This document shows, piece by piece, positions 20,858 through 57,846 of a DNA stretch of 64,000 bases. Positions within the stretch are counted from its first letter, which is position 1, and every line of letters starts with the position of its first letter. This DNA comes from Escherichia coli (GTDB lineage Bacteria; Pseudomonadota; Gammaproteobacteria; Enterobacterales; Enterobacteriaceae). Both the position numbers and the translations under genes were made by a program. Where the stretch lies: the NCBI RefSeq assembly GCF_003334355.1, contig NZ_QOWP01000009.1; one strand, written 5' to 3'. A model generated the notes under the pieces. The model was not told where the DNA came from and ran no database searches. It saw nothing but the letters and a program-made list of their open reading frames with translations.

Positions 20858-20957
20858 GCCGGATGCGGCGTAAACGCCTTATCCGGCCTACAAGATCCAA
20901 AGAAATCAGTAAATTGCAGCACACATTGTAGGCCTGATAAGCGTAGCGCATCAGGCA
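20858..20957. repeat. REP/BIME: two inverted REP units after livJ
   Basis: GCCGGATGCGGCGTAAACGCCTTATCCGGCCTACA (20858..20892) and inverted copy TGTAGGCCTGATAAGCGTAGCGCATCAGGCA (20927..20957). Confidence 0.85.
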
Positions 20958-20997
20958 ATTTCTCGTTGGTCATCACTTTTGAAATCAAACTTGACGA

Positions 20998-21381
20998 TTA
21001 ACGCTTTTCCCAGCCGCCCTGTTGTGCCGTAAATCCCAGTGCCTGCATAAACGCCGTCATCACACCGCGATCTTCCACGCCTGCATCCGCCATCCACCAG
21101 GATGAAACGCTGGGATTATCACGCAAAACCTCTTCCAGTAGATATTGCCCCACGCCGCGACGTCGGGTGACTTCCCGCACGCGCAGAGAATCCAGTGTTC
21201 CCCCAATGCCGCTCAAGGTTACGCGTACAGCCGCAAGCAGGCGCTCGTTAAAACGCGCGGCGTAGATGCGGTGGTTATCGTTAACCTGTAAAGAGGAAGG
21301 GGAATACTCCGGCCAGATCTTTTGCAGGTCAATCCGGTCCTGGTCGCTAAAGTTTTCTAATCGAATGATGGTCAGCTTCAT
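20998..21381 (-). CDS. panM: PanD maturation factor PanM (GNAT-like)
   Basis: 127 aa ORF between livJ and livK on the opposite strand. Confidence 0.85.
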   Translation of the reverse strand: MKLTIIRLENFSDQDRIDLQKIWPEYSPSSLQVNDNHRIYAARFNERLLAAVRVTLSGIGGTLDSLRVREVTRRRGVGQYLLEEVLRDNPSVSSWWMADAGVEDRGVMTAFMQALGFTAQQGGWEKR

Positions 21382-21804
21382 GGGTAACCCGTGTAAATCA
21401 CAAAAGTGGAACCAGTGTAGCGAAATAATTTAATCGGAGGCTTTCTCTTTTTTATTTCTTTTGGCAGGTGATTAATTTTTTAACAGCAATAATTACAAAG
21501 TTAAAACATTAGAGAATGAAAAATGTCCAGCATAATCCCCTGAATGGTAGTGAATTATTCCGCTCTTTGTGCCGTTATTTTATGCTGACAAAGGCACCTT
21601 TTTCTGTTTATCTATCAATAAATTCAGAATATTATCTGTTCTTAATCGACTGAAAAATAGGGATTTTAATCGCTATCATCACAAAATACTGCGCTAACCC
21701 CTTAATCAGACAGGTAAAAACAGTGCAGTATAAAAAAAGAACAGTCTGATTTGTTAACACATAAAAACAAAGCAACACAACATCACGAATGGGGATTTTT
21801 GACT

Positions 21805-22914
21805 ATGAAACGGAATGCAAAAACTATCATCGCAGGGATGATTGCACTGGCAATTTCACACACCGCTATGGCTGACGATATTAAAGTCGCCGTTGTCGGC
21901 GCGATGTCCGGCCCGATTGCCCAGTGGGGCGATATGGAATTTAACGGCGCGCGTCAGGCGATTAAAGACATTAATGCCAAAGGGGGGATTAAAGGCGATA
22001 AGCTGGTTGGCGTGGAATATGACGACGCCTGCGACCCGAAACAAGCCGTTGCGGTCGCCAACAAAATCGTTAATGACGGCATTAAATACGTTATTGGTCA
22101 TCTGTGTTCTTCTTCTACCCAACCTGCATCAGATATCTACGAAGACGAAGGTATTCTGATGATCTCGCCGGGAGCGACCAACCCGGAGCTGACCCAACGC
22201 GGTTATCAACACATTATGCGTACTGCCGGGCTGGACTCTTCCCAGGGGCCAACGGCGGCAAAATACATTCTTGAGACGGTGAAGCCCCAGCGCATCGCCA
22301 TCATTCACGACAAACAACAGTATGGCGAAGGGCTGGCGCGTTCGGTGCAGGACGGGCTGAAAGCGGCTAACGCCAACGTCGTCTTCTTCGACGGTATTAC
22401 CGCCGGGGAGAAAGATTTCTCCGCGCTGATCGCCCGCCTGAAAAAAGAAAACATCGACTTCGTTTACTACGGCGGTTACTACCCGGAAATGGGGCAGATG
22501 CTGCGCCAGGCCCGTTCCGTTGGCCTGAAAACTCAGTTTATGGGGCCGGAAGGTGTGGGTAACGCATCATTGTCGAATATTGCCGGTGATGCTGCCGAAG
22601 GCATGTTGGTCACTATGCCAAAACGCTATGACCAGGATCCGGCAAACCAGGGCATCGTTGATGCGCTGAAAGCAGACAAGAAAGATCCGTCCGGGCCTTA
22701 TGTCTGGATCACCTACGCGGCGGTGCAATCTCTGGCGACTGCCCTTGAGCGTACTGGCAGCGATGAGCCGCTGGCGCTGGTGAAAGATTTAAAAGCTAAC
22801 GGTGCAAACACCGTGATTGGGCCGCTGAACTGGGATGAAAAAGGCGATCTTAAGGGATTTGATTTTGGTGTCTTCCAGTGGCACGCCGACGGTTCATCCA
22901 CGGCAGCCAAGTGA
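21805..22914 (+). CDS. livK: Leucine-specific binding protein LivK
   Basis: ORF track 21751..22914; start at ATG 21805 ([23 protein letters not shown] signal peptide) gives 369 aa; highly similar to LivJ. Confidence 0.93.
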
Positions 22915-22961
22915 TCATCCCACCGCCCGTAAAATGCGGGCGGGTTTAGAAAGGTTACCTT

Positions 22962-56083: not shown

Positions 56084-56108
56084 CGCTCGAGAGAAAGGAA
56101 TCAGCGAG

Positions 56109-57101
56109 ATGAATAAATTCACCGGTGTTTTACTATTAGGCACGGCGTTACTGGCGGGATGTGTCGACCGGGAAGGGTACTATAACAGCGTTAGGGAAGA
56201 AGAGAGCCATGGACTGACGTCTCTGCGGGGGCAACCTGCATTACGTTACAGCGATGATTGGTCAAGATGGCCGAGAGTGTACGGCGCTACAGCCTTATAC
56301 CCGCTGTATGCCTCCGCGTATTATAAATTAGTACCCGAGCCAAAAGATAAGGATCGAACCTCGCTGGCCTGGCAGGCGTATGGTTTGCAGCAAACCCGAA
56401 CAGCTGAAGCCTACGATAGTCTGATTAAAGGTTCCGCGACGGTTATTTTTGTTGCACAACCGTCGGAAGGACAGAAAAAACGTGCAGAAGAAGCGGGTGT
56501 TAAACTGAAATATACCGCTTTCGCCCGCGAAGCCTTTGTCTTTATCGTTGATATTAATAACCCGGTAAATTCTCTCTCTGAGCACCAGGTTAAAGATATT
56601 TTTAGCGGCAAAACTAGCCGCTGGAATAAAGTAGGTGGTAGTGACGAACATATAAAAGTCTGGCAGCGCCCTGAAGATTCTGGAAGCCAAACGATTATGA
56701 AGGGGTTGGTTATGCAAGACACCCCAATGCTGCCAGCTAAAAAATCCACTGTGATTGATCTTATGGGCGGTTTAATTACTGAAGTTGCCGACTATCAAAA
56801 CACGCCATCTTCCATTGGGTACACCTTCCACTATTACGTCACTCGTATGAATGACAATATGCTCAAAATGCGCAAGCAGATTAAACTTTTGGCTATAAAT
56901 GGCGTTGCGCCTACCGAGGAAAATATCCGCAACGGCACTTATCCATACATTGTGGATGCCTATATGGTGACGCGTGAAAATCCCACGCCGGAAACGCAGA
57001 AATTTGTTGACTGGTTTATAAGTCAGCAGGGGCAACAGTTGGTAGAGGATGTGGGGTATGTGCCGCTGTATGAAGCATCCCCCGAATCATCAGGACAATA
57101 A
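56109..57101 (+). CDS. Lipoprotein with PstS-like periplasmic substrate-binding domain (paralog of the upstream gene's C-terminal domain)
   Basis: ORF track 56046..57101; start at ATG 56109 (MNKFTGVLLLGTALLAGC lipobox) after AAAGGA; the domain aligns by eye with 54848..56083 (AREAFVFIV, NPVNSL, WQRPEDSGSQT, IGYTF.YY, LLAINGV.PT.ENIRNG, VEDVGYVPLY). Confidence 0.7.
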   Translation: MNKFTGVLLLGTALLAGCVDREGYYNSVREEESHGLTSLRGQPALRYSDDWSRWPRVYGATALYPLYASAYYKLVPEPKDKDRTSLAWQAYGLQQTRTAEAYDSLIKGSATVIFVAQPSEGQKKRAEEAGVKLKYTAFAREAFVFIVDINNPVNSLSEHQVKDIFSGKTSRWNKVGGSDEHIKVWQRPEDSGSQTIMKGLVMQDTPMLPAKKSTVIDLMGGLITEVADYQNTPSSIGYTFHYYVTRMNDNMLKMRKQIKLLAINGVAPTEENIRNGTYPYIVDAYMVTRENPTPETQKFVDWFISQQGQQLVEDVGYVPLYEASPESSGQ

Positions 57102-57703
57102 TGATGAATATAATCAGACTTTATATTTATCCGTTATTTCTCGGCTTTGTTATTGTGCCGTTGTTGGTGTGGCCGATGGTGGTTGCGCTGGCTGCTTGTA
57201 TTATCACGCTGAGTTTTCTGGGGGAAATGCTGTTCTCAATCCCGCTCATGATCAGGCGTATTTCACTTCTGCAATTACAACTTTGGTTATCGGCTGAATA
57301 TGCGCTTTTCTTCTGTGTAATGTGTTGCGTTGGTTGGCAATTTACTCGTAGAACTCAATCTGAATTGAAAAGCAGGCTCCATTGTTGATTGGTATTCGCA
57401 CCGATCTATTTATGGTTGATCCTCTGGAATATCATTTTTTACATCGCGCCAGCGAAAATTGCGTTGCTGGAAAGTATCCGCAATTTCTTTCTGCTTGTTG
57501 TCTGGCTACCCCTGAATTTTTCGCCATTTTGGCCTCAGCCGTGGACGGATTTTATCGGTCCAATAAGCGCACAGCTTGGTTTTGCGTTGGGATATTATTG
57601 CCAGTGGTGCAGCAAAAATAGATGCCAGATACGGAAGTTGAGTGAGTGGGGAACGTGCTTAAGTTTTGTTACGTTGGGTATGATGGCGTGGGCTTTGCGG
57701 TAA
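57101..57703 (+). pseudogene. Small polytopic membrane protein ORF interrupted by an in-frame TGA (two ORF-track pieces 57101..57388 and 57389..57703)
   Basis: ATG 57101 overlaps the stop of the upstream lipoprotein gene (TAATG); ORF reads through to TGA at 57386..57388 and continues in the same frame from 57389 to 57703. The distal part (GPISAQLGFALGYYCQW) resembles the membrane segment of 54567..56083 (PVGAHISFSLGYAWPTR). Confidence 0.35.
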
Positions 57704-57747
57704 TTCCCTGAATCAAAAAGTAGGTCAGATTGTTGACAACGTGGCGC

Positions 57748-57846
57748 TTTGTTCATGCCTGATGCGGCGCGAACGCCTTATCAGGCCTACAAAATCATGC
57801 AAATTCAATATATTGTATAAACAACGTAGGCCAGATAAGCGTAGCG
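57748..57846. repeat. REP/BIME: two inverted REP units downstream of glpD
   Basis: GCCTGATGCGGCGCGAACGCCTTATCAGGCCTACA (57748..57782) and CGTAGGCCAGATAAGCGTAGCGCATCTGGCA (57816..57846); a 10-bp stem hairpin follows at 57870..57893. Confidence 0.85.

Follow-up and report, generated by a model that had tools for sequence, protein, structure and literature searches.

REP pairs of the livJ-glpD region of Escherichia coli: three BIME-1 elements and a diverged pair between ugpB and ugpA

Gene order and inventory of REP units

The window analysed here is a 64-kb stretch (64,000 nt) of the Escherichia coli chromosome, taken from contig NZ_QOWP01000009.1, in which four inverted pairs of repetitive extragenic palindromic (REP) units lie among the liv, ugp and glpD genes. 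The gene order is that of K-12 MG1655 at 3.56-3.61 Mb in reverse complement and, according to the K-12 and PGAP records, runs rpoH, livJ, panZ, livKHMGF, ugpBAECQ ... glgBXCAP, yzgL and glpD. Because of this agreement, the gene names used in the first-pass annotation, which had been made from the sequence alone, are right. The pairs lie between livJ and panZ (locus 1), livF and ugpB (locus 2), ugpB and ugpA (locus 3), and a yzgL-like gene and glpD (locus 4). A 601-nt piece around locus 1 had 100% identity with several isolates from humans and animals and was present in all 5426 complete E. coli genomes.

Eight REP units were read in the window, and they form four pairs arranged tail-to-tail, with the CTAC/GTAG ends facing each other in each pair. 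The 14-mer REP tail CTTATCMGGCCTAC matched seven times with up to two mismatches, compared to 0.48 matches expected from shuffles; none of 100 shuffles reached seven, and all seven matches fell inside the four spans. Seven of the eight units agreed with this tail at one mismatch or fewer, and the eighth (R3a, 28365-28393) was degenerate, its CTAC being replaced by CTGG. A profile of the eight units, searched with nhmmer, recovered the same eight at E-values of 8e-10 to 3e-7, six orders of magnitude away from the next-best match at 0.49. Since the profile gave nothing better than this beyond the eight, the four inverted pairs listed in the first-pass annotation are indeed present and make up the complete list for the window. 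Its first three spans were right within 1 nt; the fourth, 57748..57846, was placed about 9 nt too far left and cut the last unit, the true extent being 57757-57854. A repeat search blind to REP sequences paired the same loci: loci 1 and 2 as inverted copies over 120 nt (84%, repeat I1), loci 2 and 4 through a shared 64 nt (91%, I2), and the ugp pair through 28-nt arms that are 86% complementary (I6).

All four pairs lie between annotated or called open reading frames (ORFs), i.e., they are extragenic, and the RefSeq/PGAP feature tables carry no labels for them; both statements had been made earlier and hold. An Rfam scan of the window at gathering score gave no REP match, and the sole family reported was the small RNA RyhB at 37599-37663 (+) with 83 bits. 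In K-12, all eight units are found at the corresponding sites. REP elements and the bacterial interspersed mosaic elements (BIMEs) that they form have been described since 1982-1991. The finding is therefore already known, given the K-12 units and the textbook knowledge of the family.

Family identity and hairpin structure

The three 34-nt units of the window matched the Y consensus of the literature, GCCGGATGCGGCGTGAACGCCTTATCCGGCCTAC (as quoted in PMC12306157), at 31 to 33 positions (Table 1). Independent copies gave us a consensus for short Z as well. It was matched at 27 to 29 positions by the 29-nt units of loci 1, 2 and 4, and at 21 and 26 by the two ugp units. The general REP consensus GCC(G/T)GATGCG...CTTATC(C/A)GGCCTAC with its GTAG/CTAC foot was likewise found, R3a being the degenerate unit. 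Pattern search and alignment, the checks proposed with the first-pass annotation, thus bear out its assignment of the units to the E. coli REP family. The units also aligned with REPs elsewhere in the same genome. The locus 1 query found at least 40 places per genome in every one of the 5426 E. coli genomes, and the locus 2 query a median of 22. The four sites are ordinary, already described members of the E. coli REP repeat family, also known as palindromic units (PUs).

Each of the eight units folded alone into the expected bulged hairpin, with energies of -9.5 to -21.3 kcal/mol. When the eight units were aligned with four K-12 orthologues, 97.9% of the stem cells were in standard pairs and three pairs had changed on both sides, whereas sliding the partner by one to three columns as a control brought pairing down to 18-42%. 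The comparison of locus 4 (57757-57854) with K-12 (record L001, 3583-3680) showed such double changes, from T-A to A-T and from G-C to A-T. Hairpin potential has been kept by compensatory changes. At this locus, the short Z stem has A-T in the window and T-A in K-12, the inner stem of the Y unit G-C and A-T, respectively, and the diagnostic stem position of the Y unit T-A and G.T.

BIME-1 elements at three of the four sites

BIME-1 elements consist of a Y and a Z1 unit in single copy with a long conserved L linker between them, often with a site for integration host factor (IHF), and in BIME-2 elements Y and Z2 units are repeated in tandem, separated by short linkers (PMC3333891, PMC1187871). 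At loci 1, 2 and 4, one 34-nt Y-length unit and one inverse 29-nt short Z unit enclose a linker of 36, 36 and 35 nt, respectively, and each site has one copy. The long unit GCCTGATGCGACGCTGGCGCGTCTTATCA(G/T)GCCTAC occurs in the BIME-2 elements that flank rayT and in the sucB-sucC BIME-2 of K-12; since these arrays and two papers make Z2 the long form, we took the short 29-nt unit to be Z1. One Y and one Z1 unit, inverse and in single copy, were found in this way at loci 1, 2 and 4 and not at locus 3. The first-pass annotation had treated the four sites as one kind, which does not hold: three are canonical BIME-1 elements, and the fourth is an atypical, diverged pair with a short linker.

We aligned the three window copies with eight unrelated copies from other genomes (asnB-nagD, fdnI-yddM, fepA-entD, fliD-lafA, yjeI-yjeJ, ybbP-dinQ, lpdA-yacH and yqjG-DUF805). 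The family consensus from these 11 loci reads, in order, a left flank ..TTGACAAAGTGCGCTTTGTTCAT, the Y unit, AAAATCNTGCAAATTCAATATATTGCAG.., the short Z unit and a right flank TTTTGCGTTTGTCATCAGTCT. Because the flanks are conserved, the BIME-1 element extends over about 120-150 bp and is wider than the 100-nt spans given earlier. The 17-nt L core was exact at loci 2 and 4 and occurred nowhere else in the window. The linker of locus 1 departs from the family core, although its length and its AAGATC start are those of the others, and it is kept at the orthologous site in K-12 and Escherichia sp. E1V33. A 12-nt segment, TTCTCGTTGGTC, lies right after the short Z unit of locus 1 (20961-20972); it was found in the window and in Escherichia sp. 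E1V33 and was missing in K-12.

The flanking genes converge at livJ/panZ and at the yzgL-like gene/glpD, and livF and ugpB stand in tandem in different operons. Judged by their sequence, loci 1, 2 and 4 are single BIME-1 (RIB/RIP-type) elements in 3' untranslated DNA. In the literature, binding by IHF is ascribed to the L linker of BIME-1, and strong in-vivo gyrase cleavage to BIME-2 (cleavage, PMC6379681). The IHF consensus WATCARNNNNTTR was matched at 13 of 13 positions in the locus 1 linker and at 12 of 13 by the L core at loci 2 and 4. The three BIME-1 linkers, and only these, are predicted to be able to bind IHF.

A scan for a Y tail, 30-40 nt and a Z tail in one genome per species gave at least 128 instances, among which the shared L core was dominant. 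Among the matches listed, the same L core came from E. coli, E. albertii, E. whittamii, Escherichia sp. E1V33 and Pseudocitrobacter, and sporadic instances with other linkers came from Citrobacter, Kosakonia, Pluralibacter and Salmonella arizonae. Pseudocitrobacter faecalis and a Pseudocitrobacter metagenome-assembled genome (records L039-L055 and L062-L079) carried many Y-L-Z elements with E. coli-type arms and the L core (…AATTCAATATATTGCAGAAACCTT), and the strict E. coli form of BIME-1 is therefore abundant outside Escherichia. In addition, the 262-bp contig NZ_AGAF01000060.1 (L038), labelled Desulfosporosinus sp. OT (Firmicutes), is an E. coli-type BIME-1, most likely a contamination of that assembly.

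The REP pair between ugpB and ugpA

The third pair lies between ugpB and ugpA, inside the operon ugpBAECQ and not at its end, contrary to the placement at operon 3' ends that had been claimed for all four pairs. Its linker is 8 nt long and its units are diverged: R3b combines the G/C stem of a Y unit with a short loop, and R3a has lost the CTAC foot, while a C-G to T-A change has preserved its stem. As RNA, R3a and R3b pair into one 24-bp hairpin (28364-28431) with a minimum free energy (MFE) of -49.4 kcal/mol and a z-score of -7.35, compared to -9.5 and -14.4 kcal/mol for the separate hairpins. With a linker of only 8 nt, one long hairpin is favoured over two REP hairpins. It spans from 10 nt past the ugpB stop codon to 20 nt before the ugpA start.

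The pair is identical in K-12 and O157:H7 strains and is present in 5105 of the 5426 genomes. A search at megablast sensitivity placed it at a median of one site per genome, and this single-copy state fits an old, decayed insertion. As far as its sequence tells, it is an old and diverged REP pair, atypical and of a different kind from the other three. A full-text literature search for a described ugpB-ugpA REP found nothing relevant.

A REP located less than 15 nt from a stop codon was reported to reduce translation of the upstream gene (quoted in PMC12306157), and the ugpB hairpin lies within this distance; a full-text search for the original paper on REPs near stop codons found nothing relevant. 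By analogy with malE-malF, the hairpin would shield the part of the polycistronic mRNA that encodes UgpB and reduce the expression of ugpAECQ relative to ugpB. Since it starts 10 nt past the stop codon, it may also hinder the termination of ugpB translation.

Strain variation and alternative cassettes

Among isolates, BIME-1 elements are known to vary by presence and absence, not by length (PMC1187871). We counted a site as present when at least 80% of the query, which included flanks of about 128 nt, was covered in the 5426 E. coli genomes. Locus 1 was present in 3748 genomes (69%), locus 2 in 4630 (85%) and locus 4 in at least 2129 (at least 39%), the last count being a minimum, given that the left flank varies as well. 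Presence and absence were indeed observed, with other content at the vacant sites of O157:H7, CS18F, UMNK88 and Escherichia sp. E1V33. In O157:H7 86-24 (L017, 2654-3603 and 9244-10467), ataR-ataT lies between livJ and panM and a gene for a TPR protein between livF and ugpB, and no REP units are left in these two gaps. Escherichia sp. E1V33 (L108, 7084-8180) has the BIME-1 at livJ-panZ and the TPR gene at livF-ugpB, CS18F (L138, 368-1258) has a phd/doc pair at livF-ugpB, and in UMNK88 other genes abut glpD. The alleles lacking a BIME carry ordinary terminators, a hairpin with a T-run, after livJ or livF.

The right boundary of the livF-ugpB gap, TTATCCGTGCCCCATCTCCC, is common to all alleles and lies ahead of the ugp promoter. 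The livF-proximal hairpin is followed in the window by TTGAGAC only and in the phd/doc allele of CS18F by T6, which makes the latter a full intrinsic terminator. In strain AR_0077 (L007, ~1-1000, with the junction near 1000), the livJ-panM BIME-1 is interrupted by IS1397 within the loop of its Y unit, and the sequence resumes at TAAACGCCTTATCCGGCCTAC, an instance of the documented targeting of PUs by this element. Two of eight randomly sampled BIME-1 copies adjoin toxin-antitoxin genes, namely fdnI-yddM (L010, HigA-family yddM) and ybbP-dinQ (L014, type I toxin dinQ), an anecdotal observation that recalls the toxin-antitoxin pairs found in place of BIME-1 at the liv sites.

There is a slim chance that the BIME-1 segments at livJ-panZ and livF-ugpB are interchangeable cassettes with shared boundaries, and that REP/BIME-1 DNA, or RayT acting on it, is the agent or footprint of exchange at operon ends. 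If so, a BIME-1 at an operon end would be more than a passive hairpin in a 3' untranslated region (UTR).

Proposed function and alternative explanations

The four sites are, with high probability, best explained as members of the REP/PU family, comprising three BIME-1 elements and one diverged ugp pair, for which the literature suggests roles as RNA hairpins in 3' UTRs or between cistrons. Units transcribed together with the upstream gene would fold into stable RNA hairpins. These would block the 3'-to-5' exonucleases PNPase and RNase II, thereby defining and protecting the 3' end of the mRNA, and would partly attenuate read-through, in part via Rho. The BIME-1 elements at loci 1 and 4 would serve both convergent transcripts, and the one past livF would act in the interval from the liv operon to the ugp promoter. 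As DNA, the L linkers of the three BIME-1 elements could be bound and bent by IHF. RayT, the REP-associated transposase whose gene lies elsewhere in the genome, probably dispersed the elements; no rayT gene was found in the window (best tblastn E-value of 0.5).

Published data on other REPs are consistent with such roles. In Term-seq experiments, many Rho-dependent transcripts ended just past stable stem-loops, a quarter of which are annotated REPs, and such stem-loops shield transcripts from PNPase and RNase II (PMC6061677). REP325 was found to attenuate read-through, partly via Rho, and to stabilise the upstream mRNA; furthermore, REPs between tandem genes were associated with upstream-biased expression, and those between convergent genes with higher expression of both (bioRxiv 10.64898/2026.03.23.713779). 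In the supplements searched, we found no 3' ends at the genes considered here and no REP lists.

Several points weigh against this explanation. Genome-wide, no general effect of REPs on mRNA half-life was seen (bioRxiv 10.64898/2026.03.23.713779), so that the transcript stabilisation stated in the first-pass annotation is plausible but depends on context. The 3' ends of livJ, livF and glpD each have their own unique hairpin nearer the stop codon, and these gene-proximal hairpins may do most of the work. The alleles without a BIME-1 in O157:H7, CS18F and Escherichia sp. E1V33, with their other cassettes and ordinary terminators, evidently function. The bare IHF consensus matched 14 times in the window compared to 4.2 expected; a linker match taken by itself is weak evidence for this reason, and the case for IHF rests on BIME-1 membership together with the literature. 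IHF binding, transcript ends and half-lives at these sites are all things that we infer. The naming of Z1 and Z2 is also inconsistent among papers: the long unit flanking rayT is labelled z1 in a figure legend of PMC3479197, and the short unit was identified as Z1 from two papers and by elimination. The architecture test is independent of this naming.

The strongest competitor, possible though distinctly less probable, is that the pairs are selfish or neutral, i.e., REPIN-like REP doublets mobilised by REP-associated transposases (RAYTs) into permissive 3' intergenic DNA, with no host function at these loci, and that their palindromic shape is kept through transposase recognition or gene conversion. 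The polymorphism of the three BIME-1 elements agrees with this, as do the ordinary terminators of the alternative alleles, the lack of a general half-life effect and the IS1397 insertion in the Y loop at the livJ-panM site of AR_0077. Each BIME-1 can also fold as one long single-strand hairpin as REPINs do, and the GTAG foot required by TnpA-REP is kept in seven of the eight units. The ugpB-ugpA pair, however, occurs in almost all genomes (5105 of 5426) and has the same sequence in K-12 and O157:H7 despite the loss of the GTAG foot on one unit, and the literature contains local REP effects on stability and read-through in several operons. This account is, moreover, compatible with the REP hairpin roles proposed above, since origin and present effect can both hold. 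That the sites are simply chance palindromes, or unique terminator hairpins unrelated to REP, has practically no probability. Hairpins are common at 3' ends, which is all that speaks for this idea, and it is ruled out by the statistical excess of REP tails, the genome-wide repetition and the alignment to independent copies.

It is unlikely that the elements act as intrinsic (Rho-independent) terminators of livJ, livF, the yzgL-like gene and glpD. A few REPs are documented in this role, and on the + strand the short Z hairpin at 57826-57854 is followed by AG and TTTTTT (T6 at 57857-57862); with the conserved T-rich right flank (TTTTGCGTTTGTC), this makes BIME-1 look terminator-like in the Y-to-Z direction. 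However, all four loci were without a site in a consensus terminator scan that disallowed bulges, and, read in the sense direction of livF or glpD, the last hairpin has no T-run behind it. The genes downstream of the ugp pair belong to the same operon and need expression, and most REPs are described as having no U tract. Still less probable is a DNA-level role as gyrase-binding sites or topological insulators. Gyrase binds REP DNA in vitro and a BIME has been described as a supercoil barrier; in vivo, however, gyrase cleavage is enriched in BIME-2 elements, the tandem arrays of Y and Z2 units (PMC6379681). The window contains no Z2 unit, the best identity being 29 of 36 by a Y-length unit, and no tandem BIME-2 array with S/s/l/r short linkers (2-12 units), just two units per site; the linker of locus 3 is short but comes without Y/Z2 units or repetition. 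The earlier statement that the elements bind gyrase or IHF therefore lumps two BIME classes: gyrase binding is unsupported in the window, and IHF binding is expected of the three BIME-1 elements.

The practical value of the analysis lies in annotation, as the elements are left unlabelled in the PGAP/RefSeq tables. Separating BIME-1 (IHF-type, single copy, present or absent), BIME-2 (gyrase-type arrays) and intra-operon pairs avoids wrong transfer of function. The strain-variable BIME-1 elements and the alternative cassettes are useful markers of intergenic plasticity and could explain strain differences in the 3'-end processing of liv, ugp and glpD transcripts.

Feature coordinates and neighbouring sequences

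The units, linkers, flank and gene-proximal hairpins are listed in Table 1.

Table 1. Positions in the window of the REP units and associated features at the four loci, with the evidence for each
Feature	Position	Strand	Evidence
R1a, Y-type unit (GCCGGATGCGGCGTAAACGCCTTATCCGGCCTAC), first unit of the BIME-1 in the livJ/panZ convergent gap	20858..20891	+	33/34 to published Y consensus; hairpin -21.3 kcal/mol, z -4.2; nhmmer E = 3e-7
L linker of locus 1, 36 nt, contains AATCAGTAAATTG at 20904-20916	20892..20927	+	13/13 to IHF consensus WATCARNNNNTTR
R1b, short Z (Z1) unit	20928..20956	-	29/29 to empirical short-Z consensus; hairpin -12.9 kcal/mol
livF gene-proximal hairpin AAGGAGTC-AAAA-GACTCCTT, upstream of the BIME-1 and outside the repeat, part of the 3' end	26658..26677	+	-11.3 kcal/mol, centroid structure
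R2a, short Z (Z1) unit, 62 nt past the livF stop	26703..26731	+	28/29 to short-Z consensus; hairpin -13.2 kcal/mol
L linker of locus 2, family core GCAAATTCAATATATTG at 26743-26759 (- strand)	26732..26767	-	core 17/17; alignment with 10 other BIME-1 loci
R2b, Y-type unit, A/C mismatch at stem position 4 (G/A there in K-12)	26768..26801	-	32/34 to Y consensus; hairpin -18.7 kcal/mol
R3a, degenerate unit (GTCGGATGCGTTTCGCTTATCTGACCTGG) without CTAC tail, 10 nt past the ugpB stop (28352-28354)	28365..28393	+	nhmmer E = 3e-7; 21/29 to short Z; own hairpin -9.5 kcal/mol
R3b unit (GCCGGATGCGCTTCGCTTATCCGGCCTAC), Y-like G/C stem but short loop	28402..28430	-	26/29 to short Z; hairpin alone -14.4 kcal/mol; identical in K-12
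Conserved left flank of the locus 4 BIME-1 (..TTGTTGACAACGTGGCGCTTTGTTCAT)	57726..57756	+	aligns with left flanks at asnB-nagD, fdnI-yddM, fepA-entD and other loci; repeat-search D5
R4a, Y-length unit, T/A pair at stem position 4	57757..57790	+	31/34 to Y consensus; hairpin -19.4 kcal/mol; K-12 differs by compensatory changes
L linker of locus 4, core GCAAATTCAATATATTG at 57799-57815	57791..57825	+	core 17/17; alignment
R4b, short Z (Z1-like) unit, A-T pair at stem position 4 (T-A in K-12)	57826..57854	-	27/29 to short Z; hairpin -13.2 kcal/mol (- strand), -12.9 kcal/mol (+ strand)
glpD gene-proximal hairpin, 10-bp stem, between glpD stop and BIME-1	57879..57902	-	MFE -17.9 kcal/mol over 57 nt, z -2.5; conserved in K-12

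K-12 lacks about 3.2 kb of the DNA that separates glgP from the BIME-1 of locus 4 (54452-57703) and has the yzgL remnant only. This stretch of 3.2 kb contains two paralogous genes for PstS-family substrate-binding proteins (54848-56083 and 56046-57101) and a 200-codon membrane-protein-like gene (57101-57703), which has an internal stop at codon 95 in the window and is intact, with 2 nt different, in strain 214-4. The yhhZ-yrhA region (34282-37600, compared with K-12, L001 21139-25044) is without the IS1E that splits yrhA in K-12.

Comparison with known systems

REPINs are reportedly REP doublets that form hairpins, as described by Bertels and Rainey in 2011. The pairs of the window resemble them in being inverted doublets able to fold into a single long hairpin within one strand, and in the genome-wide association with RAYT. 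However, REPINs were defined in Pseudomonas and have other sequences, and the copies here are known from sequence, with rayT lying outside the window. BIME-2 elements, such as REP325 at yjdM-yjdN, those at sucB-sucC and those flanking rayT, share the Y unit and the general REP hairpin; they differ in their long Z2 unit, short-linker array and tandem repetition, and because the window has none of these, their gyrase association is not transferable.

The closest counterparts of loci 1, 2 and 4 are the BIME-1/RIB (RIP) elements of E. coli, said to go back to Gilson, Bachellier and Hofnung, to Boccard and Prentki in 1993 and to Oppenheim in 1993. Y and short Z units stand tail-to-tail around a 35-36-nt L linker with conserved outer flanks, the linker has a AAATTCAATATATTG-type core or, at locus 1, the perfect match to WATCARNNNNTTR, and one copy per site is present or absent among strains. 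Departures from the type are the diverged L linker of locus 1, the Z-typical T/A stem pair in the Y-length unit of locus 4 together with the A-T pair of its Z unit, and the mismatch at the same stem position in the Y unit of locus 2.

Intercistronic REPs of binding-protein-dependent transport operons, such as malE-malF and hisJ-hisQ, were reportedly treated by Newbury et al. in 1987. The ugp pair differs from them in its diverged units (21/29 and 26/29 to short Z), one of which has no CTAC/GTAG foot, and in its linker of just 8 nt. As in those operons, however, it follows the gene for a periplasmic binding protein, precedes the genes for membrane components and can form a very stable hairpin.

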